From a virus: DNA of 64,000 nucleotides. The position numbers were made by a program, and so were the translations under genes. Location of the stretch: IMG/VR virus record IMGVR_UViG_3300044998_001357, positions 84,784 through 148,783 of that record. One strand, 5' to 3'. Shown piece by piece: positions 2,527 to 57,841 of this stretch. The first letter of the stretch is position 1. Each line of letters opens with the position of its first letter. Below the pieces are notes generated by a model that saw nothing but the letters and a program-made list of their open reading frames with translations, was not told where the DNA came from and searched no databases.

Positions 2527-3576
2527 ATGGCAAATGTTGTTGGCACCCTCACTCGCGCCGCCACGCGTCGAGACAATGAACCGCTAAATATCCTCACTTT
2601 TCCGACCCACGAGCGCTATCAGTCGCAATTTGCCGAGATGTCCGCGAACTTTTACCTGGTGCGAGCCCCCCAGGTCAAGGACTGGAACCCGACCTACGCT
2701 ACAGTGCCCGACAATCATATCCTGCTCGACCCGGCCCTGGGCGAGAAGCAAATTCCTGCCCATGTCGATTTTGATTTGGTGCTTAGCCAGAACAAGTTTG
2801 GTCAGTATCAGCTAGCTCAGCAGATTGCTCGCTCGTTGCAGCTACCGCTGGTGAGCCTTGAACACACTTTGCCTCACCCGGACTGGTCCCGAGCCAAAAT
2901 TGAAGCCATGAAGCAGCTTCGCGGAGACATCAACGTCTTTATCAGCGAGTATTCGGTGGAGCAGTGGGGCTGGAGACTCGATGACCCCAGTGTCCAGGTT
3001 GTTCATCACGCAGTAAATACGGATGTCTTCTCTCCAAAAATTGAAACATCCAAGAATAGGCATATTTTATCAGTTGTTAATGATTGGATTAATCGCGACT
3101 GGTGCTGTGGTTATTCTCTCTGGCGTGAGGTTGTTGATGGGTTACCCACCCATGTCCTAGGAGATACGCCGGGGCTTTCCTCGCCCGCTCCCAACGTCGC
3201 CGGACTTGCGCTTGCCTATGCCATGTCCGCCGTGTTCCTCAACACAAGCCTGATTAGCCCGGTTCCCACGGCCCTTCTGGAGGCTATGTCGTGCGGGTGC
3301 GCCGTTGTTTCCACGGCCACTTGCATGATTCCATCCATCATCGAGAATGGGGTCAATGGATTTATCTCCAACGACCCGGCGGAGCTTCGCAGGTACTGCG
3401 AGCTTCTTCTGGACGACCCAAAACTCCAAAAGAAGCTCGGGCAGGCGGCACGAGAAACCATTACTCAGCGATTTAGCATCAAACAATTTCTCGGCAGGTG
3501 GGAAGCCATTTTTCGTCACGCTGCCGAGATGGCCTGGACAGGAGAAAAACATGAAAATTCGCATCAATGTTCGTGA
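2527..3576 (+). CDS. Glycosyltransferase family 4
   Basis: VHHAVNTDVF, FLNTSLISPVPTALLEAMSCGCAVVST, IIENGVNGF. Confidence 0.88.
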   Translation: MANVVGTLTRAATRRDNEPLNILTFPTHERYQSQFAEMSANFYLVRAPQVKDWNPTYATVPDNHILLDPALGEKQIPAHVDFDLVLSQNKFGQYQLAQQIARSLQLPLVSLEHTLPHPDWSRAKIEAMKQLRGDINVFISEYSVEQWGWRLDDPSVQVVHHAVNTDVFSPKIETSKNRHILSVVNDWINRDWCCGYSLWREVVDGLPTHVLGDTPGLSSPAPNVAGLALAYAMSAVFLNTSLISPVPTALLEAMSCGCAVVSTATCMIPSIIENGVNGFISNDPAELRRYCELLLDDPKLQKKLGQAARETITQRFSIKQFLGRWEAIFRHAAEMAWTGEKHENSHQCS

Positions 3577-19500: not shown

Positions 19501-19557
19501 AAGAGAACTCGAAAACGAGCGCACCAAACCACCAAGGAATGTACCTGGAATAATCAT
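16543..19557 (-). CDS. Large tail-tip/baseplate-hub-like protein
   Basis: 1004 aa; N-terminal hub-like pattern SLLEIIDQVCKDCGCDFFVEL...IKIRAVSR; tail context. Confidence 0.6.
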   Translation of the reverse strand: MIIPGTFLGGLVRSFSSSLGLGLGSPSQLNLQLVDDPVQGLFVQLPKVGTPLSFQFYGFTFRGLLQKAETGRGTEGNPVYSVVLSDPREILEGTQVITGGYSGSVGNVPNLLNPYGYWESVGYGVSGANDSGMTWRQVAVAIRAMVNAPRPVAYGGPLVFANQTYGLDLDDMPIPPEYYRVGGGVSSSLLEIIDQVCKDCGCDFFVELVGFTIKIRAVSRFRQPPLGTLSALANSNWGSSLIRSTVGLEMRNELTSAFLVGGEVHTMWSSIAIRNFWGYDPAGNPILSTPYVEMFNDAAGKPLQQINTEIVNLNASPVADILGNVRYLCTTLEMRMAQVNYESWALYLRRHRPIMADIIGVSSPFLNMGGANQAPVRANFVNDEWKEVLLAVNNAVQGDIHAKCMRMYEFVRGYADEFMGRKYLVGLPFILVQTDSETRRVTTSYEVADAGYFDETAAPLGLSPLNEDMLRNPDGRFRAFVAYSNLAGVDFSRISPQGAVLENNTLYLEVQVDPRMVSAPEPCVVVSLSGPVVEQSPDNVGNLDIVAAVLQMNPQQAQKRLQQAPIPIKVSAAVRHPTVACIPLKSNTSFYGPWFASGAPGKVRMEQDPSLTPWNYGGHALMNLAGQARVLQAITNMQVSETGTMELVGPPTTSLGNLLEAGGPNITSIDVQCGTQGVTTSYRFQTFTPRFGVLSKAFIERMRQNSLANMELRRAMRLALKEQVRQNIALGNAARGARVWMERQAKARKRETPHDCLLSHGFWDSDTQAYRQNTFTATFEECVSLCNATNTELFKNTAIMSLDGLFRPFSAGGYQGSMPRLQNQLINGVIPGVAQLNPWKQANDIEVYTWGESYRGLHAFRRGATPTSARVFGLRAPVVLVGWGFGLDGKCIPGSGDGTTFDHDHTYRQDKWKAGPLDPLWDDMRGVWTCHGTLKGRIYHDVPPQGSGLMVVRAGGAYDGDNTNYTSLTVWNWFGTAVNAPTKVIVSYIPTDNKWYIVAADCPG

Positions 19558-19984: not shown

Positions 19985-20518
19985 ATGCCAAATAAAGTCT
20001 ATACCGCCAATGAGCAGCGAATCTTTTTCGTAGCACCCACGGTCGCCTCAGGACTGCAAAACACCTCGATATTGGTAGCTGGGCTGCCCCATGGTTCGGG
20101 CTATGTGTCCGACCCCAGGGATTTAGGCCCTTTTCCCCGCACGACGCTGTTCAACTGGCGTGCTCGCATGGCTTGTCAGTCCAATCCCACCCTCAACGGC
20201 AAACTTCAGTTGTTCTGGGCTGGTTTTGATAACCCGGATGATATCTCGCCAACAGGCACCCTGATTGGTATGGATGGCAATCTGGGAAGCGGCAACCACA
20301 TGATTGCGGGTCGCGAACGTAAAAGCAATTTGCAGTTTCTGGGTTCCATCACCGCCGACCGCTCTGAGTCGGGAGTTGCCTTTACCAGTAGCGGCCAATG
20401 CCAACTCCAGAGTCGCTTTGGGTCGCTCGTGGCGTGGAATGAAACCGGTGCGCAGCTGTCGACCCAGGATAACGCCTTTGTCTTCAGTCTCACCTTTGCG
20501 CCGGAAGAAATCCAATAA
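19985..20518 (+). CDS. Putative virion structural protein
   Basis: 177-aa beta-rich ORF, RBS AAGGGGG. Confidence 0.6.
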   Translation: MPNKVYTANEQRIFFVAPTVASGLQNTSILVAGLPHGSGYVSDPRDLGPFPRTTLFNWRARMACQSNPTLNGKLQLFWAGFDNPDDISPTGTLIGMDGNLGSGNHMIAGRERKSNLQFLGSITADRSESGVAFTSSGQCQLQSRFGSLVAWNETGAQLSTQDNAFVFSLTFAPEEIQ

Positions 20519-20572
20519 CTCCTGCAGTTCATACAAACAAGTCATTATTGATTTTTGTTTGGAGAAACGAAG

Positions 20573-21838
20573 ATGACACCCGAGGGATTGGTGGGTTTTT
20601 GGCCCCTCATTCTCGATTGGTCAGATATGGCAATGGGGCACATTACTCAGGAAAATCCCGCCTCGGCACTAATTAGCCAGGGGTCTCGCGGGCAGCGGGC
20701 CGGGTGTCAATTTGAACAGGTCTATCCAGGGCCAAGCTTGACGTGGTTGGAGGTGGCCAGCGACCCTGTCTTTTCCTTTGACTACTCCCAGACCTGGAGC
20801 GTTTCGGGCTGGTTCTGGCGAGATGCCAACGATTCGGTTCCTGCCCCCTATGCCTTGTTTTCCAAGATGGATAGTACCGGGCAGACAGGCTGGGAGGTGC
20901 TCCTGTCTTCCACAGGTGCTTTGACCGCACGACTGGTTAGTGACCTGGCCGCCTCTCAAGGGGTCGAGGCGATATCCCAGACCGCTGCTGCTCAGGATGG
21001 GCAATGGTTTCACTTTGCCGTGTGCTTTGATGGTGTGTTTCGGTTCTGGCTGGATGGTCGCCCACTTGAAAGTATAACCACTTTTAACACTCCAGTGGGA
21101 AATCCGGTCAATACAGACACGCTCAAATTCGCCGGAAGAAAGGCCGGCAACGAAGCCAACTTTAATGGTCTGCTTCGATTGATGCGAATCTACGACCGTG
21201 CCTTAAGTGATGATGAGATTTCACGAATCTACAGAAAAGAATCATTCGTCGGTACGCACAAACGGCTCGCACTCCGCAGGGTGCCGCCCCTTACTCAGCT
21301 GGGTCGCTTGGACCTGATGGTCGCGGTTGATTTGCCGGTCGCGCACCAGGCCGCTGTATCCTTGATGGTGAATGGGCACAACTTTGTGGGAAATGGTTAT
21401 TTTGGCAGTCTGGACCTGACCCTGTATTGCGGTCCGGATGGGAAGAGACCCAACGCCGCCCTGGTCTTGTTTCTTGAGACCACCACCACCGAAAGTATTC
21501 GCCGAGGTATGAATCTGACACTAAGTGGTCAGAACTGGTCGGCCTCCCAGGGTCTGGAACTCTGGCTCAACAATTTGCAAACCGGGCTGACTCAGGGCAT
21601 AACGCTCTGGATTCGGGGCCAGGAAGCCCAAGAGACCGCCTCGCTTGGCTGGTTCCTTGCCCGAAATCCCAGTGAAGCGATGACACTCTACCTCCAGGCA
21701 CCCGGAGAGCAACAATCCCAGGCGGTGCCTTTGTTTGTTGGTGGCGAAACAGGGCAAAATTACTCCCTGGAACTGGTGGTCGCGCAAGTAACGGGAGCTT
21801 CGGCAAAGGGCAGCATTCTTTATACCCACGGATTCTAA
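20573..21838 (+). CDS. LamG/concanavalin-A-like domain tail protein
   Basis: GLVGFWPL, WSVSGWF, DGQWFHFAV, WLDG, FNGLLRLMRIYDRALSDDEI; C-terminal LxLx(V/L)xG repeats. Confidence 0.8.
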   Translation: MTPEGLVGFWPLILDWSDMAMGHITQENPASALISQGSRGQRAGCQFEQVYPGPSLTWLEVASDPVFSFDYSQTWSVSGWFWRDANDSVPAPYALFSKMDSTGQTGWEVLLSSTGALTARLVSDLAASQGVEAISQTAAAQDGQWFHFAVCFDGVFRFWLDGRPLESITTFNTPVGNPVNTDTLKFAGRKAGNEANFNGLLRLMRIYDRALSDDEISRIYRKESFVGTHKRLALRRVPPLTQLGRLDLMVAVDLPVAHQAAVSLMVNGHNFVGNGYFGSLDLTLYCGPDGKRPNAALVLFLETTTTESIRRGMNLTLSGQNWSASQGLELWLNNLQTGLTQGITLWIRGQEAQETASLGWFLARNPSEAMTLYLQAPGEQQSQAVPLFVGGETGQNYSLELVVAQVTGASAKGSILYTHGF

Positions 21839-21841
21839 GAT

Positions 21842-23284
21842 ATGAGTGTTAGTTACGATGGCAAAAAGCTGATACCGGCTCCGTTTATCTCCATCCAGAG
21901 AGAACACATAACCAGAGAAGATGGGACGCCCCTTTCCTCTCTTTACACTCTGGTGGTCAAGGGGAAGTTGCTGGCCGACCGTGGTTCGCCCAATTCTCAA
22001 GGGGTGTTTCATCAGCTTTCGGGCTATCCCGCCAACGAATCCCTGGTTGGTCCTAACCGGTTTGGGTCCATTCTGGCCAAACAAAAAGCGTTGCAAAACC
22101 TCTTTGCGACCGATGGCAGGCTGTTCGAGGTTCAGGCCTCGGAAAACCACCCGCCCTTGAAATTCCGACCCCGGATTCGCCGGGTTGACATCCCCGAAGG
22201 AGAAGGTCGAGGGGGTAACTGGACCGAGTATTGCGAATATATCATCACCATGGAAGCAGACAGTATTGATGGTCTGCTTGATATCGCAAACTCGTTGCGG
22301 GTTAGCAAAGTTTCGGAAGATTGGTCGATTGAAATCCTGGATGAAAATCGTAACACCTATCGATTGTCCCATTCCGTGTCGGCCACGGGCAGACGACTGC
22401 TCGATGATAGCGGCAATTTACTGGAAAATAAACAGGCTTGGGAGCACGCCCGCGACCATGTTCTCAACACCCCCGCTGTCCAGGGCAAGGGTATCGGCCT
22501 TGGACTCAAGCCTGAGCGCATGGAAGCCCCCGGCGTCCTCAACGCCTCTTCGCTGCAGGCGTTTAACTATTTACGAACCCAATCGATTGGGGAAGCGGCG
22601 GGCACTTTTGCGGTCAATGAGACCTGGGTATGTTTTGACCCCCAGGGTCAACCACCCGCCGTCAGCGAATACAATATCGTCATCCGTAGTTCGACCAACG
22701 ATAATCGGACCACTGTTTCGGTCGATGGGTCCATCACCGGTCTAGAAGTTCGCGACAATACGACGCATGATATTATCTCGACGCGATGGGATAATGCTTA
22801 CGCGAAATGGACTAATCATGTTTCGCCTAATCTTTTTACAACCGCCCAAAGCGCGACAGCGACAATTCTCAACCCGATTCCCTTAAGCAGCCAACAAGGG
22901 CAGAATCGGCTTAGTGGCACCATCACTTACACCTACGAATTTGACAATCGGCCTGTGGCGACCACACCTGGTGCCCTATCCGAAAGCATCACGATTCAGG
23001 ATGTCGGCGCTGCGGATGTGTTTGCCACCCTGCCTGTGCTGGGTCGACCCCTGGGGCCTATTCTGCAGGGAATTGGGACCAAGACCGCAAAGAAGCGAAC
23101 CATCAATATCGAAATTCAGATGCCGCCCGCCACGACCAATTCGGTAAGCAGTCAGCCCAACACCAACACGGTGGTTTTGTTGTATCTCCCGCCGGGAACT
23201 CAGGTCTATCTTGAGCAAGACGATGAAACCTGGACCCCGCTGACCGGCCGTTATACAAGAAACACTGTTTATGTGTGGGTGTAA
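21842..23284 (+). CDS. Putative tail (distal tail/baseplate) protein
   Basis: 480-aa Thr/Ser-rich beta protein in tail context. Confidence 0.6.
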   Translation: MSVSYDGKKLIPAPFISIQREHITREDGTPLSSLYTLVVKGKLLADRGSPNSQGVFHQLSGYPANESLVGPNRFGSILAKQKALQNLFATDGRLFEVQASENHPPLKFRPRIRRVDIPEGEGRGGNWTEYCEYIITMEADSIDGLLDIANSLRVSKVSEDWSIEILDENRNTYRLSHSVSATGRRLLDDSGNLLENKQAWEHARDHVLNTPAVQGKGIGLGLKPERMEAPGVLNASSLQAFNYLRTQSIGEAAGTFAVNETWVCFDPQGQPPAVSEYNIVIRSSTNDNRTTVSVDGSITGLEVRDNTTHDIISTRWDNAYAKWTNHVSPNLFTTAQSATATILNPIPLSSQQGQNRLSGTITYTYEFDNRPVATTPGALSESITIQDVGAADVFATLPVLGRPLGPILQGIGTKTAKKRTINIEIQMPPATTNSVSSQPNTNTVVLLYLPPGTQVYLEQDDETWTPLTGRYTRNTVYVWV

Positions 23285-23355
23285 ACATAGCTTTAAATAA
23301 TCCATCTTTTGTTTATTGTGTGATGCCACAAAACAGATTCTAGTGGCCAACCCTC

Positions 23356-23384
23356 TTGCAAAATCCATGATGGTTATATAGACT
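23356..23384 (+). promoter_or_regulatory. sigma70-like promoter of the lipoprotein gene
   Basis: TTGCAA-N17-TAGACT in an AT-rich gap. Confidence 0.55.
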
Positions 23385-23452
23385 CATTTTGTCGCCCCTG
23401 GGCTGGGGAGACTCTAAACGCTTGAGGACAGGTAATTAGGAAGACTAACACA

Positions 23453-23857
23453 ATGCAAACAAAACCTTTTCTTGCCATTCCCCTTTTGTGCCTGTTCGTT
23501 GGCTGCGAGCGACCCGCAACCAAGCCTATTCCACAACCAGCTTCTCCGCCTAGTAAAGTTCCAGAACCGTGGTTACAACCACGGCCGGTTGGTCTGACTG
23601 AGAAAGAGAAGGCAATCAAGGAGTTATTGCTCCGAAAAATAGCTCAAAAACGAGCTCGCGAGCGTGATAACGATGAGCATGAACTTCATCTAATCACCGA
23701 AAGGATGCGCGCCGCAGCCGGAAATCAGCCACGATTTCGCGCATCACGAGTCGGTGAGTACACTGAATACTTCATGATTGGACTTCGAGAAGCATTCAAA
23801 GACGCAACACCTGAAGATGTGATGATAGCCATGCGGAATATGGGTATAACTCCCTAA
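23453..23857 (+). CDS. Predicted lipoprotein (moron-like)
   Basis: MQTKPFLAIPLLCLFVG|C lipobox followed by a Pro-rich linker. Confidence 0.75.
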   Translation: MQTKPFLAIPLLCLFVGCERPATKPIPQPASPPSKVPEPWLQPRPVGLTEKEKAIKELLLRKIAQKRARERDNDEHELHLITERMRAAAGNQPRFRASRVGEYTEYFMIGLREAFKDATPEDVMIAMRNMGITP

Positions 23858-26800
23858 TCCAGATTGACCCCCGAATCAGGCATTTGCTCTCGGAAGATGC
23901 GGTTGAGCGAGGCACGCACTTCCTTGGTAATCATGGCCTGAATTTCCGGGCTAATCCGAGACAGAACCTCTGCGCCGTTGATGTTGACATTCACCTGGTG
24001 AGTTCCCTGCAGGGTAATGTTCTGCGGGATTCGTGAAATCGCGTCCGCCAGGGCGTTCGCGCTCCCCAAAAAGGAGGTGAACCCCTGGGAAAGCCGGCCC
24101 ACGACCTCACCAAACCCACCCGCCGCCCGCACAAACGCATTAAGTGTACGCGACAGCTGGTCGATTGCCTCACGCGGAATGGAGGGGCCAGGGATGGACT
24201 GACCACCAACCGCACCACCCTGATTGAGTCGCTCCAGCGTGGGAGCACCCAGACCGCTGGCGGCTCGGCGGTTGAGGACAAACTCTCCTGGGGTGAGCAG
24301 GGCAGGGACAGTATCGAAAATTCCCGAACCCGGAACAGGACCGCCCGTGGCCATCCGGAGCGGTCGCTTTGCACCCACCATCACCACACCGGGTTGTGTG
24401 ACGCTACGCAGCCAACGCTGATACTCGCGACTCTGGCTCGCGTTTTCTTTCCGAATCATCCCTTCGCGAGAAAGCAGGCTCATGGCGATGTTGCGCTGCC
24501 CGTCTTCGCCGGGACGACCCAGCCCGCCAAACGAGCTTCGCTGGATGAAGTTCTCCATCTGGCTCGCCATGGCCAGCTGACCGACCTGAGCGGCCACAAA
24601 GAAGCGTTTTTGTCTCTCGTTAAACTTTCTGTCTCGAAACAGGTTGTTGCGAATGTAGTTGTTCGCTACCCAACCCTGAAGAACCATTGCCGAGGCCCCA
24701 AACGGGTTGATTGCTGCCTCCATTCGCAACTGCTCTTCGAGCTCAGCCGTGCCACCACGCGCCAGATAGACCGGGGAGGTCGACGAGTTAATCCGGCGCA
24801 GCAGTCCGGCGTTAGCCTGGGCAGAACGCCGATTGACCACGAACTCGCCCGGGGTCAGCCAGGCCGGAACCGTGTCCGTTCCCAGGGGGGAGCCAGGATG
24901 GCCGGCGACGTTGCCGCCGGTGGCCAAGCGAGCGGGAGCACCCTGAGGTGGGACATTCCCACCGGGAATTTGTTGCCGCAGACGAGCAATGGTGTCGGCC
25001 AGGGCCTTGAGTTCGGAGTTAACCTTGTTGATTTCCGTACCCAGATTTTCCAGCCGGTTATCCGTGGTATTGAAGGCGTTGAGGGCTTCCAGGAACTCCT
25101 GAGCGGCCCGTGGCCCTCCCTGCTGAAGCCGCTTTTCCAGTCCGGCGGTATCAAGACCACGGATGCCTCTGAGGCTTGCTATCGCTGTTTCAATCTCTTG
25201 ATTCACACGAGCAAACTCACCGCCTGCTTTGGCGTCTCCCAACTCTAGTTTGATTGCCTTACGAATATCATCTCGGAGTACTCGATTATAACCGTCGGGT
25301 GTATGTACCTCCTCAGGAGTGATTGGTTTGGTTCGCACTTTTGCGAATCTTTCATAGGCGATTCGTTGAGCCGATTTCTGATCAACCCCCTGATTTTGGA
25401 GCCACCGAAACAGAGATTCTTGTTGTTGCGGCAAATTCCCATTAATTTGAACATTGTCAACATCGGCAAGCGCTCGTTCTCGTGCTGTGTTGATTTGCGA
25501 GCGTTGCGTTAGCCCACGAATCAGCGACTCGGCGCTTCCCCGCTGGTTCTGAAGGGCGACATATTGGTCGGTCGTGGTGACGCCAATACCGGCAAGCATA
25601 TCACGTTGATTGGCAAGTCGTCCCAGGCGACCACTTTGCGCACTGAGAATGCCCTGACGATTTTCCGCTTCGACCAGGCGTTCTTTCAGCAGAATCGCCT
25701 CCAGACGAGCGAAAAACTGCTCCTGTTGGGTGCCTAGATTACGGAAGAACTCGGCCGAGTTCTGTTGCTGGAATTGAATCAGCTGTATAGTGGCATCCTC
25801 GGCAGCCTTGAATCGCTGACCAATAACATCCTGGAGTTGCCGCTCTTCTTGTTGTTGACCATCATTCAGCCGGAAGGCACCGCCAAACGAATTGGAAAGT
25901 AGATTCTTAAGCAGGTCGTCGGCCCGGGGCGAGCCGGCAAAACCAGTCAACGTCACACCACCGGCCGACCGGAGCGTCTCGATGATGGAACGACGGTCGT
26001 CAGCGGAGAAGTTATCGAGATTCCCCTGGCGGGCCGCCTCATTGGCCAGAAGTAAGCCCCGGTTCATCCGCACCATCTCTTCAGGCCCGGCGGTGGCAAA
26101 CCGTTCGGCAAGCCCCAGTCGGCCCTCCTTTTCCTGCTGAAGTCGGGACAGCTTCTCTTGAGCAACCGAAGTCTGATTGGTGACATCAGTCAGATTGCGC
26201 AAAGCGGTCTGCAGGTCGGCGGCACGCGATTTGAGACGGAGCACTTCTTCGGCCGCTTGAGCAAAAGCGGGGCCTCGACCACCGGTTTTGATAAACTCCT
26301 GTTGCTGGTTTCTTTCAGCATTTAGAAGTTGCGCACGGGTCTCACCCAAGCGACGACCCAAAAGGATAGGGTCAAAAGCCGCAGGCCCTGCCACACCCGC
26401 CAGTCTCGACTGCCGAGAGCGCTGACCAAACTCCAGCTGCTCTAGGCCGGCAAAATCCAGCGCCTGATTCCCACGTCCTGCGCGACTTGCCATGACTTCC
26501 AGATTCTGACGGAAGCGACTGGTTTGTACGGAGGCTAGTTGGTCAAAGGACTCGCCAATCTGACGCAGACGACTAGTCAGTTGAGTAAGCTGCTCGGTCA
26601 GTTGATTCGCGTTGTCCTCCAGTTGACGTGCAACCTTACCGCCGATGTTTTTCAGGGGCTCGGCAAGATTCTGTAGTAGGCTACCACTCAGCGCGGTGGT
26701 ATCCACCTGAACCTGATTGATGAGGTTGGTCAGGCCCCCTCGGTCACTACTAAGTTCCTCGTTGAGCCGTCGACGTACCGAAGCCCGGGCGACACGAGCC

Positions 26801-29800
26801 TCCGTGTCGTCACCCAGACGCTCGCGCAGCAGACGGTCCACCTGAGTGACAACATCGGCCTCGGAATTGTTTTGCGCGCCGGCTACCACGGTAGCCAAAA
26901 TTCCCGGCAGAACACGCGACAGATTGTCCACCTGCGTGCCGGTGTTCAGCAACCTGGCACCCATTTCGCCACCTATGGCAGCAACCGTTTGCAGTGGCTG
27001 CAACCCCCCCCGGTCCAGTCTACCCAGCTGGTCCAGGTTTTCCGCACGAATCGAGACACGACTCGCTCCAATGGTCCCGTCAAAGACCTCAGCCAGGGCC
27101 TGACCACGCTGGCGAAGCTCCAAAAGCGAATCGGAGGCTGATTGAACAGCAAGCAAAAGACGACCAAACGAATTTATATTCTTCTCGTCTGTCTGTCGTC
27201 CCTCCAGATTACGCCGCTCGCTCAGGGTTGCCTGTTGCCCCTGGAGCACACTTTTGCGTAACTCTAAGAAAACATCATCAATGGACAGACCACGAATCGA
27301 GGCAATTAGTCGCACCAGTTCGTCGTTGAGGCCATCACCACTCGCACGCAGCTGCTGAATAATCCGACCAATATCTCCGTTGTATTGGGCTCGGCCCAGC
27401 GATTCCGCGTTGCGTTGCAGGTAGGACATCATCGAAGGCAGCTGCTGACCGAAATCCTGTCGTAGTGAGCGAGCCTGAAGTTCGCCAAAGCCCTTGGGGT
27501 CGTAGCCGCTGAAGAAGTAGGTCGAGGCAATCCGGTTTTTCTCAAACGCCTCTGCTCGGGCGGTTCGCAGCGAATCCCTGGCGGCGGTGATAAACCGACC
27601 ATCGGTGGCCGGACCAAGATTGGCGAGTTGCTGAATCTTGTCGGAAAAAATAGTAAGAGCGTTGTTGATTTTGACCTGGCGAATCTCATCGGCACTCTCT
27701 CGCAGAGCGGACACCACGCCTGCGACACCGCCAACAATTGCGCCCGCCGCACCGCCAATCACCGTTCCCACCAAAGGAATCATGCTGCCGACCGTGGCAC
27801 CGATGGTTCCACCCACCAGAGCACCTTGCAATCCCCCTGAAATCGCCCGGTTGTTCGCATAGTACGAGGTGGAGCCGGCGGTTACCGCGTCTTCCACCCG
27901 GCCTGCACGATTATCAAAGAACGCCGACATCGCCGGAACGGCCATCATGGCCGCAATGGCACCCGGGCCTGAGAAAATGTTGGCAACCGGACTATTGTCC
28001 AGTCGTTGGGCCAGCCTACTTGGTGTGGTCAGCCAGTTCCCCACCGCGCCCGCCATGCCGCCCAGGCGGTAGCCCAGACCACCTGCCAGGGGTGCATCAA
28101 TACCTCGCGTATTGGCCTGTCGGACCGTTGATTCCAGACCCGCGATTTGTCCCGTGTTTAAACGTATCACACGAGCCTGACCCGACATGGCGGCTGCCAC
28201 ATCCTCGGTCGCCTTGCGATGAAGTTCCATGGCCGACATTTGCGGGTTGAGCTTCGCAAGCAATCGGCGTTGCGCCGAATAGAGTTCTCGCTCCGTTTTG
28301 GCGGACTCGGCGGCAAGGGCCTCTTGTTGAATCCGTGTTTGAGTCGTTTGGCTTAAATTATTTGCTCCACCCAGCCGACTCATTCGCCGATTAGCTTCCG
28401 TTTGCGCACGAGAGGCCAATCCGCCAGTAGGTACAATCTCCCCCGCTTCGTTCACCTGGGTGAGCGATTCACTACGAAGACCGATGCTCTGCAACATCCG
28501 CTTTTCAAGAATGGCTAGCTGGGTCGGCGACAGAGACCCCTTGGCCTGCTCCAGGAATGGGGTCATATCCTTAGAGCCGGAATTCCGGAATTGCTCCAGG
28601 ATTCGCATCGTGACCACACCCGGGTCGTTTCGATAATCCTGAAGTTTTTGTTGGTTGTACCGAGCCTGTGCTTCTTGAGCCCTGACCTGTGCTTGCCTTT
28701 TCTCTTCCTGTTTTTGACGCATTTTCGCTACGGCTTCTTCCCTCTTCTTGGAACCGGCGGCTCCAAAGGCATAGACAGCTGCGCCTGTACTTTGGTCTTG
28801 AAGCATCGCTTCTTGGCGTTGTCGAAGAGGGTCCACATAATTTCTGGCCTGGTATCGTTCCTCCTTCTTTTGCATCATTTTTTCGCCGGCTAGGTTTGCG
28901 ATAATCTGCTCTTGATATCGCACTGCCTCCGGGTCAGATTGAATCAGATTGGGATTAAATCCGGGGTCACGCCGCTTGACGGAGTTATCGAAATCTTTCT
29001 GGGTTGCCTTGACCTCCATTTGGAATTTATAATTATCGAGTGCTTTCACGCGTTCGGCACGCAATTTTGTACCGGGAAGACCCTGAGAAACGTATGCGCC
29101 CGGCATACCGGTACTATCTTTTACCATCTGTTTTACATACAGAGGGTCAGCATAACGGTTGCTTTCTTGACGCTGACGCGATTTTTCCATGGCCTGGGCA
29201 GCACGAGCAGCAGCCAGTACCTGCTCTTGATAATGGACAGCCCGTGGGTCTCTGGCCATCAGTGCCGGATTAACCTCGGCCGTGGAGCTAATTCCCAAGA
29301 CCTTCGGTCGAGACTTGTAAGCCTCAAGCTCTTCTAGTTTCTTCTGTCGTAACGAACTACCCGGCAAGCCGTAAGCAACAAAACTACCCGGCATCCCAGA
29401 TGTATCTTTCGCGTACTGTTTAAGGTACAAAGGGTCAACAAAAGGGTTGTTTTGTTGTCGCTGCAACCGAAGAAGAGCAATAGTCGAAGCAGCCGCCTCT
29501 GCCTGGGCTCGTTCAAAATTACGACCCTGCCGTAGCTGTCTTTCAACTGCTTTGTCTAGATTTACTGCACGTGTTGCAGCAAGCATTTGTTCCTGATAAC
29601 GAACCGCTACCGGGTCTTTTGCGGCAAATGCCGGATTGGGTAAACGAGCCAAAAACCATGCCTGCTCCCCGGACTCGGACGGTGTCGACGAAGAGGCGCG
29701 ACCGCTTGTAGGCAGCTGATTCAACCAGGCCGGCGCGGGCATGGCAGGGTTGAGCCCCACGAGGGGGTTGTAGCCTAGTTGAGGGTAAGGCGGACGACCC

Positions 29801-32800
29801 TGAGGGTCGGGCGGGGGCGGAGGAGGGCCGGCCGCAGGCGGTGCCGGCGGTTGATTGGGGGGGACTTGCGCACCACCACCAGCCTGAGCGCGTCGAGCAG
29901 CAAGGCGCTCCTTCATGGAGCCCAATTTAACAGGAGGTGGCGCTTCCGCCGCTTTCATTTGCAAGAGTTGACGGTCTAATTCTTCACCAATACGAGAGTA
30001 GAGCGCGTCATTAGTTCCTGTTGCCGGCAGTCCAAGCTTCTTGGCAAATGATTTTAGTTCATTATAATTCGTCGGCGCAGAAACGCCCATCTTGGTAAGC
30101 AGGCGTTGAATTTCGGCGGACCTTTGTTCCTGAAGGAGCCCGGCAGCACCGCCCTCGCCCTTACCGGCGACATCCATCTCCTCGCCCCACGCCGAGGTCA
30201 TGCGATACTCAAGGGTTTCAGAAATATCGCGTATTTTGGAATAAATGCCGCGACGGACATAGTTCCAGGGACGAAAATCTTTAGGGTCTCCCTGGTGTTG
30301 TATAACGGCTCGAGCAAGAGCACGGCTACCCGTTTCATACAGAATACCCGTGGGGTCCGAACCCCCAGCCACTCTCCCAATCGCCCTATCGATGATTCCC
30401 TTTCCTTCGAACTTGGCATAGAGCGCAGCTTGTTGCGGCGTCATCCGCGAAAGGATATCGGCGGCACTTTGCTTTCCTTTGTCTGTCTGTTTGAGGGACT
30501 GAGTTGCTTCCTGAGCGGCCTGAGCCAGCCCCTTAAAGACAGGCCCCGCCTTAGTCATTTCCAAAACGATTTGAGTGGCGTTGGTGAGTGCTACTTTTAA
30601 CTTGGCTGCCTCGGCCCGAACTGCATTCGCGATATCGGCGTTACCCTTGAAGTCGCCAAACTCAAAGGTTCCAGTCACCGATTCGTCTTTATTCGATACT
30701 TTGCCGCCTTTGGCATAGCCCCGAACCTTACCGGTCTGGTTCATATGATTCAGGTTCGCCAGCCCAATCCGAGAGGCCGCTTCTTTGTTGATGACAAATT
30801 CACCCGGCGTAAGCAAGGCAGGCACGGTGTCACTGGGGGACATTCCGCCCATAGCGAACTTCCGCTGCAGGAGCTTTGCCTGAAATATTGGGTCCGCCGG
30901 GTCGATGATGGCGGAGAAGGAGTTGCCTTTTGCCTTCCAGTACCGCTCGCCACCGGGCATCGCTAGTAGGGAGCGAACATCCCTGGGGGAAGCGGCAATA
31001 ATATCCTCCGCCTCCTTCTCGCTCAGTAGGCCGCATTTGACCGCTGTGGCCATGCTTGACCTGAGTCGTGACCCAATGAACCGCCTATCCAGCCGGCCGT
31101 TCGCACCGAACTTTGTCGGCCAGACGTAGTAGCCTTGGAAGTCCTCGCCACGGGCTGCTAGCAGGGACATCTTCGGGGTTTCCACAAACCCCCCCGTAAG
31201 TGACGCCAGGGCTTGTCGCGCCAGCATCCGCGATGCCGAGCCGGATTGCCGAAAATCCTCATTTACAACGAATATTGAATTATTAATGCTGGCCTCGTAG
31301 GGGCTACTGGACGGGTCAACCCCACTATGTTTCTGGTAGGTCACCATACGCTTGGCGGAATACAGGTCATCCTTGTGTCTAAACCGGACATTGACCCAGC
31401 CGTAATTTTCCCTGCTGTCCTTCGACACGTTCAGGTGTACGATGTCGTCTGGACCAGCGCCCGCCAGCATGGCCGTATTTTCGAAGCCGTGTCGCTTGAT
31501 GAAACTGTTTTCCAGTGCCCCTGATACCCATATATTGCGGCTCAGCGGGCCGGTCACGCCACGCCTCCTGAGCTCCTCGACGAAAGCCGTGTGATTCGAG
31601 CGGTCGACACTACCACCGCTGGCGAACCCTAACCAACGGGTGATTCCCCCCACCCATCCCTTGCCGCGAGCCAGATTACCAAAGAAGCCCAGGTCTTTGG
31701 GCTTGTAGTTTGCGTTGGTGCTCAACGCCACTCGCTCGATGATGTTCCGCTGAAAACCGCGTTGACGCAACGAATCAAGCTGGGTATTCTCTCGAAGGTT
31801 GCGGTCCATACCGGTTAGTGACTGGGCAAAAAGGTCCGCAAACCCCTCGTGGGCGGCGTACCGATAACGGCCCATCTGAGCACTAACATTGAGCCTGTCG
31901 GCACGGTCGCGTCTTCGGGTAATCTCGCCCTGAATACGGCCATAACGGTGAGCGCTCGTAAAATCGCGCTTGCTGGCCAGACCACGCCAACCATCCAGGT
32001 AGTTGTCGGCCGCATGCCCCAACTCGTGAGCAAGCGTGTACTTCAGTTGCTCAAACGAATTGATTTTTGATTTCGCGAGAGTGATAGTACCACGCAGGTC
32101 GCTCACATCTTTGGATTGCCTGTATACCCCTCTTGCCCCTGGAGACTTATCGTAGGTGTCGACGACATCGATGGTTCGCACCAGCTTGCGAAAATCAATC
32201 CCGGAATTTTGGCTTAGTTCCAGCAGGGCCTTCTTGATGGTATCGTTATTTAGGACGAAACCGTCTGAGGTGTGCTTCCGGCCTGTCATTCCCCTGAATG
32301 AAGGTCCGCCGGGAGCACTTCCCATCAGTGTGTTGGCCTGACCACCCCGAGCAAAGCGCTGAACTCTTCCCTCGTTGAGTTCGGTCAGACGGTCGTAGCC
32401 AATCTGTCGGGCAGAGGATTTGCGAATGATGAATTCGCCCGGAGTGAGCACCGCCGGAACAGTATCGCTATCTCCCACACCGGGAACGACGCCGCCACGG
32501 GCAAACCCACGAATGGGTTTGCCAACCTGGGCCGTTAAGCTGTTGACAAAGGCCCGAGTGGCTCCCCCCAGGCTTGTACCAATCTTGACTGCGGCAATCG
32601 CGGCCAGAACCGGCACCAGAGGCTGAGCGTATTCCAGGATTTTCGCAAACCCACCGGCAATTGTGATGAGCGAGTTAGCCAGGCCCTGAAAGCCCTTGCT
32701 ATCGACCAGGCCGCGAATGAGTTTGAGGTATTCCTCACCCAGACGTGCCGTCTTGTTGGCCAATGTTTCCTGCCGGGCCTCGGCCGCCGCGAGCAAGGAA

Positions 32801-34005
32801 ATCTGACCGGTCATGGCGACATTGACCGCCTCCTGGGCAACCCGATTTTCCTTCAGGAGCGGAATCACCTTGGAGATTTGCCGGTAACCGCCCAGCTGCT
32901 CCACCACGGCGGCGAAGCGGGTATCGGTCTCGCGAAGACCCGCCAGGCCGGTGCTGAGCCGGTTGACTGCCTCGTAGGCCCCGACGAACTGGTTTTCGAG
33001 GTTTATATCACCCAGCGCCCGAGCTTCTTCTGCTGTGTAGCGAAGATTAATCCCCAGTTCGCGCACCGCCTGAACCGTGTCGGAACGCTGCAGACGAGTA
33101 AAAATGGTCCGTAAGCCCGTGGCAATCGTATCAGCCGATTCTCGAGTGGTTGCCCGTACCGAGGTGAACAGACCCATGAATTCGGCCAGGGCTTCCTGAC
33201 CGGTCTTGGCATCACCGGCGACCGCAACGAAGGCACCACCCGCCTTTTGTATGGCGGTGATAAGGTCGCGCGACTCAACGGCGAAAGCACCGGCCACGGC
33301 GTTCATCGACCCGAGCACCGAATTAAAATCCGCTGCCTGGGTCTTGAACTGACGCCATACAGCAATCAAACCTTCGGTGGTTTGCTTAATGGACTCAAAG
33401 TTGGGAGCCAGGTCGGAGCGTGCCAGCGCTTCCATGGCCACCTTGATCTCCGTCGAGGCCAGACCCGCCTGTTTCAAGACCACAGCCGATTCGGCGAGGG
33501 CCTGACTCGACACGCCCAAGGAGGTCGATAGCCGATTAATCTCGGTCCGGATTTCCGAGATACGATTGGTGGTATCACCTGAAACCTGGGCAATCTTGTT
33601 CATCTCGACATCAAAACGAACCGCCGCAGTGACTGCCTGCTGGAAGGCACGAACGAAAGTAATCAACGAGCCTGCGGCCGCGCTAAAGGCCACAAATCGT
33701 CGAGTGGCCAGACCGGCCTGGCTGGCAAAATTTTCTAGCTGATTCACCCCGCCCTGGGTAACCCGGACTGTGGCAGCCAGGGTGGCATTCATGGTGGCGG
33801 CCTGAGACTGCACCCGACGAAGGGCTGCTTGGGTTGCCCCCAGGCCCGAATTCAGACGTGCGATGCCCTGCCGAGAACCAGAACTGTCAATCGAGATGGT
33901 CGTATTTGCGCCGCGAAGTTGCTGATTGATACCATTGAGAACCTGCGGCAGATTGCGAGGCCCCTGAATGTTTAACTGAGCGACAATGTCGAAGACCTGA
34001 GCCAT
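23854..34005 (-). CDS. Tape measure protein (3383 aa) with embedded cargo domains
   Basis: N-terminal phage-tail TMP domain (FDVEMNKIAQVSG...TTRESADTIATGLRTIFTRL); four DTVPAxLTPGEF motifs; HELGH metallopeptidase, GNAT-like and SAP-like segments; Gly-rich hydrophobic stretch; coiled coils. Confidence 0.9.
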   Translation of the reverse strand: MAQVFDIVAQLNIQGPRNLPQVLNGINQQLRGANTTISIDSSGSRQGIARLNSGLGATQAALRRVQSQAATMNATLAATVRVTQGGVNQLENFASQAGLATRRFVAFSAAAGSLITFVRAFQQAVTAAVRFDVEMNKIAQVSGDTTNRISEIRTEINRLSTSLGVSSQALAESAVVLKQAGLASTEIKVAMEALARSDLAPNFESIKQTTEGLIAVWRQFKTQAADFNSVLGSMNAVAGAFAVESRDLITAIQKAGGAFVAVAGDAKTGQEALAEFMGLFTSVRATTRESADTIATGLRTIFTRLQRSDTVQAVRELGINLRYTAEEARALGDINLENQFVGAYEAVNRLSTGLAGLRETDTRFAAVVEQLGGYRQISKVIPLLKENRVAQEAVNVAMTGQISLLAAAEARQETLANKTARLGEEYLKLIRGLVDSKGFQGLANSLITIAGGFAKILEYAQPLVPVLAAIAAVKIGTSLGGATRAFVNSLTAQVGKPIRGFARGGVVPGVGDSDTVPAVLTPGEFIIRKSSARQIGYDRLTELNEGRVQRFARGGQANTLMGSAPGGPSFRGMTGRKHTSDGFVLNNDTIKKALLELSQNSGIDFRKLVRTIDVVDTYDKSPGARGVYRQSKDVSDLRGTITLAKSKINSFEQLKYTLAHELGHAADNYLDGWRGLASKRDFTSAHRYGRIQGEITRRRDRADRLNVSAQMGRYRYAAHEGFADLFAQSLTGMDRNLRENTQLDSLRQRGFQRNIIERVALSTNANYKPKDLGFFGNLARGKGWVGGITRWLGFASGGSVDRSNHTAFVEELRRRGVTGPLSRNIWVSGALENSFIKRHGFENTAMLAGAGPDDIVHLNVSKDSRENYGWVNVRFRHKDDLYSAKRMVTYQKHSGVDPSSSPYEASINNSIFVVNEDFRQSGSASRMLARQALASLTGGFVETPKMSLLAARGEDFQGYYVWPTKFGANGRLDRRFIGSRLRSSMATAVKCGLLSEKEAEDIIAASPRDVRSLLAMPGGERYWKAKGNSFSAIIDPADPIFQAKLLQRKFAMGGMSPSDTVPALLTPGEFVINKEAASRIGLANLNHMNQTGKVRGYAKGGKVSNKDESVTGTFEFGDFKGNADIANAVRAEAAKLKVALTNATQIVLEMTKAGPVFKGLAQAAQEATQSLKQTDKGKQSAADILSRMTPQQAALYAKFEGKGIIDRAIGRVAGGSDPTGILYETGSRALARAVIQHQGDPKDFRPWNYVRRGIYSKIRDISETLEYRMTSAWGEEMDVAGKGEGGAAGLLQEQRSAEIQRLLTKMGVSAPTNYNELKSFAKKLGLPATGTNDALYSRIGEELDRQLLQMKAAEAPPPVKLGSMKERLAARRAQAGGGAQVPPNQPPAPPAAGPPPPPPDPQGRPPYPQLGYNPLVGLNPAMPAPAWLNQLPTSGRASSSTPSESGEQAWFLARLPNPAFAAKDPVAVRYQEQMLAATRAVNLDKAVERQLRQGRNFERAQAEAAASTIALLRLQRQQNNPFVDPLYLKQYAKDTSGMPGSFVAYGLPGSSLRQKKLEELEAYKSRPKVLGISSTAEVNPALMARDPRAVHYQEQVLAAARAAQAMEKSRQRQESNRYADPLYVKQMVKDSTGMPGAYVSQGLPGTKLRAERVKALDNYKFQMEVKATQKDFDNSVKRRDPGFNPNLIQSDPEAVRYQEQIIANLAGEKMMQKKEERYQARNYVDPLRQRQEAMLQDQSTGAAVYAFGAAGSKKREEAVAKMRQKQEEKRQAQVRAQEAQARYNQQKLQDYRNDPGVVTMRILEQFRNSGSKDMTPFLEQAKGSLSPTQLAILEKRMLQSIGLRSESLTQVNEAGEIVPTGGLASRAQTEANRRMSRLGGANNLSQTTQTRIQQEALAAESAKTERELYSAQRRLLAKLNPQMSAMELHRKATEDVAAAMSGQARVIRLNTGQIAGLESTVRQANTRGIDAPLAGGLGYRLGGMAGAVGNWLTTPSRLAQRLDNSPVANIFSGPGAIAAMMAVPAMSAFFDNRAGRVEDAVTAGSTSYYANNRAISGGLQGALVGGTIGATVGSMIPLVGTVIGGAAGAIVGGVAGVVSALRESADEIRQVKINNALTIFSDKIQQLANLGPATDGRFITAARDSLRTARAEAFEKNRIASTYFFSGYDPKGFGELQARSLRQDFGQQLPSMMSYLQRNAESLGRAQYNGDIGRIIQQLRASGDGLNDELVRLIASIRGLSIDDVFLELRKSVLQGQQATLSERRNLEGRQTDEKNINSFGRLLLAVQSASDSLLELRQRGQALAEVFDGTIGASRVSIRAENLDQLGRLDRGGLQPLQTVAAIGGEMGARLLNTGTQVDNLSRVLPGILATVVAGAQNNSEADVVTQVDRLLRERLGDDTEARVARASVRRRLNEELSSDRGGLTNLINQVQVDTTALSGSLLQNLAEPLKNIGGKVARQLEDNANQLTEQLTQLTSRLRQIGESFDQLASVQTSRFRQNLEVMASRAGRGNQALDFAGLEQLEFGQRSRQSRLAGVAGPAAFDPILLGRRLGETRAQLLNAERNQQQEFIKTGGRGPAFAQAAEEVLRLKSRAADLQTALRNLTDVTNQTSVAQEKLSRLQQEKEGRLGLAERFATAGPEEMVRMNRGLLLANEAARQGNLDNFSADDRRSIIETLRSAGGVTLTGFAGSPRADDLLKNLLSNSFGGAFRLNDGQQQEERQLQDVIGQRFKAAEDATIQLIQFQQQNSAEFFRNLGTQQEQFFARLEAILLKERLVEAENRQGILSAQSGRLGRLANQRDMLAGIGVTTTDQYVALQNQRGSAESLIRGLTQRSQINTARERALADVDNVQINGNLPQQQESLFRWLQNQGVDQKSAQRIAYERFAKVRTKPITPEEVHTPDGYNRVLRDDIRKAIKLELGDAKAGGEFARVNQEIETAIASLRGIRGLDTAGLEKRLQQGGPRAAQEFLEALNAFNTTDNRLENLGTEINKVNSELKALADTIARLRQQIPGGNVPPQGAPARLATGGNVAGHPGSPLGTDTVPAWLTPGEFVVNRRSAQANAGLLRRINSSTSPVYLARGGTAELEEQLRMEAAINPFGASAMVLQGWVANNYIRNNLFRDRKFNERQKRFFVAAQVGQLAMASQMENFIQRSSFGGLGRPGEDGQRNIAMSLLSREGMIRKENASQSREYQRWLRSVTQPGVVMVGAKRPLRMATGGPVPGSGIFDTVPALLTPGEFVLNRRAASGLGAPTLERLNQGGAVGGQSIPGPSIPREAIDQLSRTLNAFVRAAGGFGEVVGRLSQGFTSFLGSANALADAISRIPQNITLQGTHQVNVNINGAEVLSRISPEIQAMITKEVRASLNRIFREQMPDSGVNLD
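28720..29640 (-). repeat. Three tandem ~105-120 aa repeats inside the tape measure
   Basis: DPxAVxYQEQ at ~29587-29616, 29221-29250 and 28906-28935, each followed by (F/Y)xDPL...G..G..(L/K)R. Confidence 0.8.
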
Positions 34006-34065: not shown

Positions 34066-34848
34066 TTAGTTCAAATCGTCAACGAATTCGGTGAATTCGA
34101 CCTTGAACTCACCCTCTTCGGTCAACAGATTACCATCGATATCGATGAGTTGACCGGCCTCGTTCACCAGACGACCCTTGTCGTCGATTAGCCGACCCTT
34201 GTCGTCAATCGGGCGGCCGTCCTTCCGAATGAGCCGCAGGTCGCTTGCTCGACAGAAACCGTACTTGATAAGGAAACGGTTTTCCGGAAGTTTCTGGAGG
34301 TAGTCATCTTCCAGACCGTAAAGCAAATTCCCAAGCTGTTGTGAGGCAGGGAAGATAACAGGGTCGTTTTCCCGGCTCAGATAGTCATCCACATCACGGA
34401 AGTACGGTTTGCCTGTATCGCTATACACCACCAGAGTGGCCATCAGGTAGTTGAAACGAGCCCGTTCGGCGTAGGCCTCGGCGGTGTGTTCATCAAGCTC
34501 ATTTCGCTCGGCTGTCATCTGACGAAGCTCATTTCGCTGCTCCCGCATCTGGATGGCAATGTCCCGAGCTACCGACAGGGGGATACCACCCTGGGCCAGT
34601 TTCTTCTCGTTGGCCCACAAATCGCGATTGATTTGCTTGAACTTCGCTTCCTTCTCGTCATCCCAGAGATTTTGTTCTCGCAGAACGCGTTCGATGGCCT
34701 GCCGGACCATCAGGCCCGACTGAGTGGCGTTGCGAAACTCGCGGTTGTAAACGAGTTGAGCCTGCTGCGAGACCCGGTGGTTAGGCCTGAGTACCGAAAA
34801 AGCGACCTTCTTGCCCTCAATCTCTACCTCAAAATTCTTCTTGTTCAT
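34066..34848 (-). CDS. Putative tail assembly chaperone
   Basis: Immediately upstream of the TMP; C-terminal (D/N)xxGxL(I/V) short repeats. Confidence 0.55.
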   Translation of the reverse strand: MNKKNFEVEIEGKKVAFSVLRPNHRVSQQAQLVYNREFRNATQSGLMVRQAIERVLREQNLWDDEKEAKFKQINRDLWANEKKLAQGGIPLSVARDIAIQMREQRNELRQMTAERNELDEHTAEAYAERARFNYLMATLVVYSDTGKPYFRDVDDYLSRENDPVIFPASQQLGNLLYGLEDDYLQKLPENRFLIKYGFCRASDLRLIRKDGRPIDDKGRLIDDKGRLVNEAGQLIDIDGNLLTEEGEFKVEFTEFVDDLN

Positions 34849-35129
34849 GCCTTCTCCTGACGACTGTTTCTGGTATTGGTTTCTCGATTGTTTAATTCTT
34901 TTTCAATACTTCGCAACTGATGGTTGGCATGATTGAGAATATCGGTACGACAATTCTCCCACTCCCTCCGCCACGCGAGCTCATTCTCTGTACAATCTTT
35001 CTGGGACTTGCCATGCCCCCAGAGATGGCCAAAATAGTGCTCAAACCGAGCTAGCGCCCCAATAAAACTCGTTCTGCTCTTAGATGCAACTATCTGACTA
35101 ATTGACTTGGGTTTTTTGATGTTATCCAT
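34845..35129 (-). CDS. Hypothetical protein
   Basis: 94 aa, overlapping start and stop with neighbours. Confidence 0.65.
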   Translation of the reverse strand: MDNIKKPKSISQIVASKSRTSFIGALARFEHYFGHLWGHGKSQKDCTENELAWRREWENCRTDILNHANHQLRSIEKELNNRETNTRNSRQEKA

Positions 35130-56588: not shown

Positions 56589-56713
56589 ATCTTTGTATCA
56601 GTATTCTCATCAAGACGTTCGAATGGGAGCGACGGATATGGTGGGCGCTTTAGTTGACAACCAGGCATTCGACAGCGACGGCGGTCTCGCTGCGGGTCTT
56701 GGTAATTTCTCAT
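56589..56713 (-). pseudogene. Probable HNH endonuclease remnant
   Basis: ATG overlaps the gmd stop; MRNYQDPQ-RDRRRCRMPGC-...YPSLPFE keeps the RDxxxCxxxxC start but has no HH/N/CxxCH. Confidence 0.5.
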
Positions 56714-57840: not shown

Positions 57841-57841
57841 A

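Follow-up and report, generated by a model that had tools for sequence, protein, structure and literature searches.

Module-bounded cargo slots in a clade of giant phage tape measure proteins

Tape measure proteins (TMPs) are usually seen as rulers and channel formers of the phage tail, equipped with at most a cell-wall hydrolase. How, then, is the TMP gene at positions 23854..34005 of a 64,000-nt stretch of IMG/VR virus record IMGVR_UViG_3300044998_001357 to be understood, the product of which contains enzyme-like domains between copies of a short peptide motif, [FYLM]AxGG? The initial annotation of this stretch had proposed a polyvalent TMP with cargo domains bracketed by these motifs, possibly an injected polyprotein that is cut at them. 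The analyzed record comprises 148,783 bp and is rated 99% complete; all positions given here are those of the 64,000-nt stretch (the window), and all features of the TMP lie, like its gene, on the minus strand.

The gene consists of one uninterrupted reading frame; its product of 3,383 aa, termed P0001, is the TMP of a ~149-kb tailed phage. This assignment follows from a Pfam match to PhageMin_Tail (PF10145) at aa 154–373 (32887..33546; 58.3 bits versus a cut-off of 33.2, E 1.2e-15), from matches to several TMP families of PHROG, and from the synteny of the genes on either side with those of three related contigs (L001, L004, L006). The portal, major head and tail genes are located upstream of the TMP gene on the same strand, and two genes at 34066–34848 and 34845–35129 occupy the chaperone position upstream of it.

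All eight [FYLM]AxGG motifs were recovered where they had been reported, at 32491, 32341, 31612, 30844, 30703, 24913, 24751, and 24340 (aa 501, 551, 794, 1050, 1097, 3027, 3081, and 3218), as were four DTVPAxLTPGEF cores at aa 514, 1059, 3044, and 3231. Shuffling of the residues (n=2,000) yielded on average 0.63 and at most 5 motifs, and the density in the TMP (2.36 per 1,000 aa) is ∼20-fold that in all other frames of the window with 150 aa or more (0.12 per 1,000 aa). Motifs and cores form a common unit of ∼60 aa, hAxGG-(8–14 aa)-DTVPAxLTPGEF-(∼30 aa)-hAxGG, which is present four times in P0001 and which we call the module. Seven of the eight motifs are module ends and hence not independent of each other, whereas the fourth copy ends with GAVGG; 20 positions are invariant across the four copies. 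Module 1 (32323..32520, aa 496–561, FARGG ... DTVPAVLTPGEF ... FARGG) opens and module 2 (30688..30873, aa 1045–1106, FAMGG ... DTVPALLTPGEF ... YAKGG) closes a first slot, while module 3 (24736..24942, aa 3022–3090, LATGG ... DTVPAWLTPGEF ... LARGG) opens a second one, which is followed by module 4 (24190..24369, aa 3213–3272, MATGG ... DTVPALLTPGEF ... GAVGG). The remaining motif, a lone FASGG (31612..31626, aa 794–798), separates the two domains of slot 1, here called cargo A and cargo B, within a linker modeled at a predicted local distance difference test (pLDDT) value below 50.

Searches of Pfam and NCBIfam returned no match for the module, and its sole PHROG, phrog_35029, is of unknown function. 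The consensus of the short motif, drawn from 145 sites (21 related proteins), is [R/G/K]-[F/Y/L/M]-A-x-G-G-x-V, and hAxGGxV often occurs in tandem, as two or three units spaced 8–9 aa apart. We also considered whether the core, GDTVPAxLTPGEFV, resembles the Ser-Lys peptidase strand (SGSMxPTLxxGDxxLV) of signal peptidases and LexA, and dropped the idea, as the position of the nucleophile is taken by Asp, the module is too short for such a fold, and no profile links the two. Only three [FYLM]AxGG sequences are found outside the TMP in the window. One of them, KKLAQGGIPL, lies in an open reading frame (ORF; 34069–34902, minus strand) directly upstream of the TMP gene, in the position of the tail chaperone, and may be there by chance.

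Slot 1 begins with an HExxH zincin, cargo A (aa 556–793), the core of which spans aa 584–774 (31684..32256). A metallopeptidase between 32341 and 31612 had been predicted from HELGH at 32014–32028 (aa 660), and our analysis bears this out: HEGFADLFA downstream contains a candidate third zinc ligand, and the residues H, E, H, E, F, and A of HExxH and of the downstream E-x-FA are invariant in an alignment of nine homologs. An E-x-FA-[DE]-x-F helix following HExxH is a trait of family M34. The AlphaFold model of cargo A (mean pLDDT 79) was aligned by VIA-align to the catalytic domain of anthrax lethal factor (1yqy_A; Z 9.9, root-mean-square deviation 4.2, 170 residues) as well as to PPEP-2 (Z 7.7) and PPEP-3 (Z 7.5), with all further rows being other zincins. 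Among the viral models of BFVD, its neighbors are zincins of MuF-type "minor capsid", ART-PolyVal, virion-RNA-polymerase, and "large polyvalent" proteins. Judged from the model, cargo A has a lethal-factor/PPEP-like (M34-like) zincin fold with predicted peptidase activity, and it would correspond to the zincin metallopeptidase (MPTase) domain of polyvalent proteins (Iyer et al. 2017, PMC5512222).

This zincin family is small, with ∼17 proteins among 1.84 billion representatives, nearly all of them giant TMPs. Pfam reported just sub-threshold Reprolysin_3 and M76 rows (E ∼0.2) for cargo A, and two of its homologs have weak SprT-like matches. No match to slot 1 was found among PDB sequences, no close DNA or protein relative of the gene or of slot 1 in the isolate phage collection, and no relatives in zincin pattern scans of IMG/VR and the JGI metagenomes; the relatives described here came solely from all-protein searches.

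Do the motifs mark the borders of the cargo? In P0001, both motifs that flank the zincin lie in stretches with a pLDDT below 50, ∼20–30 aa outside the fold. The nine aligned homologs (26–38% identity) carry hAxGG before and at the end of the domain with linkers of varying length, and GG is invariant at both ends, including the position of the FASGG separator; the closing motif reads FNSGG in one of them. All ∼17 homologs retrieved with the zincin query have hAxGG on both sides. In one relative (P0005), three ADP-ribosyltransferase (ART) domains and a zincin each lie between hAxGG motifs, and the domains of three others (P0002, P0010, P0021) are framed in much the same way; several relatives have Pfam matches to ART-PolyVal, and matches to ADPrib_exo_Tox occur among relatives as well, with or without the zincin. 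That motifs fall at domain borders, as the initial annotation had stated, is therefore true both here, for the modeled zincin, and in homologs, by alignments and homology end-points. The same annotation had named cargo borders away from the motifs in homologs as the observation that would speak against it; when we made this comparison, the borders coincided with the motifs.

The family search matched at least 2,477 giant TMPs at E≤1e-5, which share the N-terminal region ∼150–560. For 135 of these relatives, coverage and end-points of similarity to P0001 were analyzed, and motifs and slots were counted in 131 family members. Similarity of the 135 relatives to P0001 collapses over aa ∼556–1049 and aa ∼3086–3217. 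Moreover, 42% of the 553 internal homology end-points are located within 10 aa of a motif, compared to 6% of positions, with peaks at module 3 (43 end-points at aa 3080–3089) and at module 4 (52 start-points at aa 3210–3219). In the closest relatives (P0022, P0025, P0037, and others), a single module can be aligned with module 1 as well as with module 2, and relatives without cargo continue after their single module with the sequence that follows module 2 in P0001. One module in relatives versus two around the insert here is the pattern of a joint with duplication, showing that cassettes enter and leave at the modules.

Across the 131 members, the median position of the first module is aa 494, and the tail behind the last module has a median length of 115 aa. 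The N-proximal slot is empty in 18 members and longer than 150 aa in 101, with a maximum of 2,038 aa. Within slots, hAxGG recurs once per ∼211 aa, and every member has hAxGG motifs, between 3 and 26 of them. The zincin is present in 26 of the 131 and absent from 7 of the 12 ART-bearing members. One relative, P0002 (L003:6001–11190; 1,729 aa), starts 13 aa before an hAxGG and continues with zincin, ART, and module. It lacks the PhageMin_Tail part, no obvious gene for the N-terminal portion lies upstream, and it may be a split or truncated TMP that begins at a joint.

The second domain of slot 1, cargo B (30859..31611, aa 799–1049), had been annotated as GNAT-like. It contains a motif-A-like FRQSGSASRML, and in phmmer searches aa 906–976 align to a stretch of P0019 that Pfam assigns to motif A of Acetyltransf_1, with a further match to P0020. 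These two weak relatives are the only ones, none further being found among proteins of 1,860–5,921 aa, and Pfam and NCBIfam gave no match for cargo B. Its model is weak (pLDDT 54, with aa ∼805–940 as the usable part); VIA-align with this model returned mostly GNAT rows at Z≤6.8, GNATs also dominate the Foldseek results at E 0.02–0.1, and in the ESM Atlas a cluster in which 20% of the members are Acetyltransf_1 ranked fourth. Sequence, structure, and language-model searches thus all point to a GNAT, with moderate support at best, and at such low scores of both sequence and structure the GNAT-like assignment, predicted in part from a weak model, is probable and not established. Slot 2 contains the small cargo C (24355..24750, aa 3086–3217), which is variable among relatives, with coverage falling to ∼25 of 135, and which had no match in Pfam or NCBIfam. 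Slot 1 hence comprises a zincin and a probable GNAT-like domain, and slot 2 a small segment without assigned function.

Taken together, the giant TMPs of this clade consist of a fixed chassis with module-bounded cargo slots, and P0001, with a zincin between modules of a PhageMin_Tail chassis, is a TMP with embedded cargo, as had been proposed. The chassis comprises an N-terminal PhageMin_Tail region, then a hydrophobic stretch and a long helical body that includes a glycine-zipper segment, and at the C-terminus the tail that binds the tip. Within the slots, folded domains of ∼200–250 aa alternate with linkers that are predicted to be disordered and bear the end motif of the module; in relatives, the slot is either empty, with a single module, or filled with other cargo such as ADP-ribosyltransferases. 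In P0001, a hydropathy scan places the hydrophobic stretch at aa 462–482 (32560..32622), directly before module 1. The glycine-zipper-like hydrophobic region at aa ∼2040–2110 (27676..27888), identified by hydropathy, PHROG matches, and a weak DUF1269 match, is presumed to be a membrane segment. The C-terminal tail (23857..24189, aa 3273–3383) is kept in ∼100 of the 135 relatives and, judged by its position, may correspond to the end of lambda gpHC that binds the tip; in lambda, gpI is bound by gpH 818–849 according to the literature.

Conservation of the module extends beyond this clade. The module profile matched lambda gpH at 728–786 with 32.6 bits, compared to at most 5.0 bits in shuffled sequences (n=1,000), and the match covers the full length of the module, including both hAxGG ends (FATGG and YATGG) and a PAxxxxGEFV core. 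A profile search of PDB sequences likewise retrieved lambda gpH (E 8.2e-6) as well as mycobacteriophage Douge gp16, the latter in two places (E 4e-13), and tblastn detected the module in TMPs of Gordonia, Stenotrophomonas, and cyanobacterial phages. In the TMP of Gordonia phage Mcklovin, an SLT domain (aa 1933–2023) ends at YANGG 2020, which opens a module. Judged by these profile matches, the module is homologous to lambda gpH 729–786 and is an old TMP element that is shared from lambda to actinophages. T5 pb2 was not detected by the module profile, and we therefore rejected it as a module homolog; what it shares is a short AEGG at its mapped cut.

What could such an architecture be used for? 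Probably, the enzymes enter the host ready-made, carried by the tail. Cargo would travel in the tail lumen and leave with the TMP at infection, and since ART and GNAT enzymes depend on NAD+ or acetyl-CoA, some portion of the TMP, if not all of it, has to enter the cytoplasm. The hAxGG linkers would be the most likely places for cuts, made during tail maturation or after ejection by a cutter other than the embedded zincin, be it an enzyme of the host, a different one of the phage, or the module itself. Once cut apart, the domains could be lined up like beads within the narrow lumen and would work as free enzymes. The zincin itself would more likely be one cargo among many, that is, an effector and at most a local processing helper. 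No tail protease gene (e.g., a JAB/NlpC gene like lambda gpK) was recognizable among the 30 ORFs neighboring the TMP gene.

Several observations are in line with cleavage. The linkers that bear the motifs are predicted to be disordered, and lambda gpH loses a C-terminal piece of ∼14 kDa from a glycine-rich region, with site and protease unknown (PMC12617516), which makes lambda a parallel and not a proof. A computed cut after FATGG737 would yield products of 80.1 and 12.2 kDa, compatible with the published masses of gpH. T5 pb2 is cut after R1127 (PMC10038345), where its sequence reads ...SFVPR|AEGGMMYPGV. In several recent structures, six copies of the TMP body face three C-terminal pieces, from which their authors inferred cleavage. 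We consider the odds evenly balanced that P0001 is a chassis with slots that delivers its cargo and is cut at or beside hAxGG; that a protease other than the embedded zincin makes these cuts seems to us marginally short of even. Rather doubtful is the broader idea that the module of the lambda gpH type is a widespread TMP maturation site (in lambda, a junction by F733-ATGG737) which was multiplied in this clade to release trains of enzymes.

A number of points weigh against cleavage and release. With ∼60 aa and its strongly conserved DTVPAxLTPGEF core, the module is far larger than a protease site needs to be, indicating that it probably has a structural or binding role in addition or instead, and the tandem hAxGGxV units resemble a repeated structural element. 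T5 pb2 is cut before A and not after GG, which together with the failure of the profile to detect it reduces the T5 parallel to a post hoc coincidence of a short motif, and the lambda cut has been placed by gel mass alone. The enzyme of Thermus phage P23-45 gp96 was modeled by its authors as working while still fused (PMC10770324), so that release is not required. As to the slots themselves, the homology end-points cannot be counted as independent events, and alignments tend to be stretched up to a conserved motif by the motif itself; the GNAT assignment of cargo B is based on weak scores.

Some of these points favor a different explanation, that the joints are structural and stay uncut. The module and its hAxGG ends would then be assembly elements, e.g., a register clamp of the TMP chains, a docking site for chaperone, tube wall, or hub, or a flexible GG hinge; the ruler could be assembled around a globular insert only with such an element on either side, and cargo would act while tethered to the ejected TMP. 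Besides the size of the unit with its invariant core, the tandem repeats, and the proposed fused action of the gp96 RNA polymerase, this agrees with the presence of modules at fixed positions in every family member, with or without cargo, and with a peptide that is conserved although its copies share little DNA identity, as expected for a selected peptide function. On the other hand, the lambda module is situated in the region where gpH is cut, and several 25-kDa domains from three to six chains would be hard to fit side by side in the lumen if neither unfolded nor separated. Lone separators also keep hAxGG without the core, which a minimal site or a hinge explains better than a docking domain. 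We regard uncut structural joints as a possible alternative that deserves serious weight.

The cutter could instead be the embedded HELGH zincin, acting on hAxGG in cis or in trans, as the initial annotation had suggested with its self-processing polyprotein. All ∼17 zincin homologs are flanked by hAxGG on both sides, the zincin is often the last or sole cargo before the closing module, and autoprocessing is the role proposed for the zincins of polyvalent proteins (PMC5512222). However, the flanking is not specific to the zincin, as every other kind of cargo is flanked alike. Most relatives have no zincin, including ART-bearing ones, while all members have the motifs, and lambda gpH and Douge gp16 possess the module without any such domain; the embedded zincin is therefore unlikely to be the general protease. 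In the AlphaFold model, neither flanking motif was docked in the active site, both being in stretches of pLDDT <50. When the zincin core was modeled together with module 1, the predicted complex scored 0.00, which gave no answer and counts neither way. These findings weaken cleavage by the embedded peptidase, and we consider it improbable.

That the motifs are mere scars of cassette exchange within module DNA, with a peptide that has no role of its own, is very improbable: homology breakpoints of relatives do pile up at the motifs, and two modules around the insert versus one in relatives do resemble insertion with joint duplication, yet the module copies within the P0001 gene share stretches of just 19–26 nt at 69–74% identity while their peptides keep the 20 invariant positions, and conservation of the peptide from lambda to actinophages likewise means selection at the protein level. 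For the same reason, the modules are not recent scars, and recent duplication or ongoing homologous recombination among the copies can be ruled out. Of the suggestion that the motifs are recombination joints, the fit of the breakpoints stands, whereas long DNA identity between copies, which would go with it, is missing.

The architecture of P0001 joins two known kinds of proteins, polyvalent proteins and TMPs that contain enzymes. Typical domains of polyvalent proteins are the zincin metallopeptidase, ART, and GNAT (PMC5512222), and a lethal-factor-like zincin together with ART and GNAT domains in a huge virion-borne protein is their repertoire as well as that of the clade described here, for which the GNAT is probable. 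With its zincin and GNAT-like domain, P0001 is a very large protein with several unrelated domains of effector type, to which relatives add ART; the polyvalent-type repertoire that had been proposed is thus supported by the BFVD neighbors, the published domain set, and the ARTs of relatives. The two differ in their anchors, which are MuF, head- or portal-associated proteins, N4-type virion RNA polymerase, or conjugation proteins in the described cases and a TMP here. The word "tape" does not occur in the polyvalent protein study, which describes no conserved separator motif (PMC5512222).

Among TMPs, lambda gpH has the same order of a hydrophobic or glycine-rich stretch, a module, and a C-terminal tip-binding tail of ∼70–115 aa, but only one module and no cargo, compared to four modules and two slots in P0001. 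T5 pb2 (pb2* and pb2C), the only TMP with a mapped maturation site, likewise has a hydrophobic or glycine-rich stretch followed by an AxGG region, and its cleavage splits the ruler from an enzymatic C-terminal piece that is kept in the tail (PMC10038345); unlike in P0001, an Arg and not an aromatic residue precedes the A, the cut lies before it, and the module profile finds no match. Actinophage TMPs such as TM4 gp17 (PMC1796659) and Mcklovin gp18 also contain globular enzyme inserts, and Douge gp16 has two modules ∼380 aa apart. Their cargo, in contrast, is a peptidoglycan hydrolase that acts on the cell wall, in one or two inserts and not in trains, and bounding modules were not pointed out in the cited literature on these TMPs.

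The closest precedents are P23-45 gp96 and Sle1, a TMP-like effector of a contractile injection system (CIS). P23-45 gp96 (5,002 aa) is a giant TMP with a virion RNA polymerase that acts in the cytoplasm; a metallopeptidase domain has been annotated in it, and there is experimental support that its TMP-borne cargo reaches host DNA (PMC10770324). In contrast to P0001, its enzyme is N-terminal and modeled as fused, and no swappable slot has been described. We do not count gp96 as a member of the P0001 architecture, since it has no module and only two hAxGG-like matches at chance level, both MSLGG. Sle1-type effectors of actinobacterial CISs (PMC13277306) are described as sharing a TMP-like chassis with an exchangeable domain that is loaded in a tail-like tube and ejected, but they belong to a bacterial injection machine and not to a phage, and carry a single C-terminal functional domain. 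Our literature search found no paper that links TMPs to ART, GNAT, or zincin metallopeptidase cargo or that describes the separator.

Thus, the ruler of this phage and of thousands of relatives is a chassis with standard slots for enzymes with cytoplasmic cofactors, and their cofactor needs imply delivery of proteins on a large scale through the tail into the cytoplasm, which so far has been documented experimentally for P23-45 gp96 alone. If this is true, polyvalent effectors would have a second, tail-borne route beside the head-borne one, and the TMPs of environmental phages, including planctomycete-associated ones, would release free zincin, GNAT, and ADP-ribosyltransferases at infection. 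To our knowledge, neither the cleavage site nor the protease of lambda gpH has been identified since 1974; as the peptide that marks the slots is also present in the maturation region of gpH, it provides a concrete candidate for the lambda cut site. Standard joints would, moreover, explain how phages exchange cargo, and in laboratory phages, engineered proteins for delivery by the tail could be inserted at them. As to the host range of the clade, a weak hint comes from one relative, whose TMP belongs to a metagenome-assembled genome of Urbifossiella (Planctomycetota, Gemmataceae).

Three further internal repeats of ∼105–120 aa (DPxAVxYQEQ ... DPLYxKQ ... GMPG) are located at aa ∼1440–1760 of P0001 (28726..29688). 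They have diverged from each other, in a region that is common to almost no relative, and are preceded by a proline-rich stretch (aa 1375–1420) and a weak SAP-like motif (aa 1315–1347).

Around the TMP gene, gene order differs in two places. At 19985–23857 (plus strand), between the TMP gene and a gene for a 1,004-aa protein (16543–19557, minus strand), three genes are inverted relative to L001, L004, and L006, where they come after the TMP gene and share its orientation. Their products have 177 aa, 427 aa (with a Laminin_G_3 domain), and 480 aa, and the block also contains an unmatched ORF of 134 aa. No convincing inverted repeats were found flanking this block, which could be a fixed inversion, an invertible host-range segment, or an assembly artefact. 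In L004, a gene for an IS605 OrfB/TnpB protein (Cas12f1-like_TNB; L004:20380–21582) lies just downstream of the TMP gene and breaks the conserved gene order.

Elsewhere in the window, a 1,703-aa ORF (51062–56173, minus strand) with matches to the terminase large subunit (TerL) is interrupted by intein splicing domains in three stretches and by two LAGLIDADG homing-endonuclease domains, and is probably an intein-bearing TerL. The packaging genes are adjoined by a nucleotide-sugar epimerase-like gene at 56710–57927 (minus strand; phrog_540, E 4e-64).

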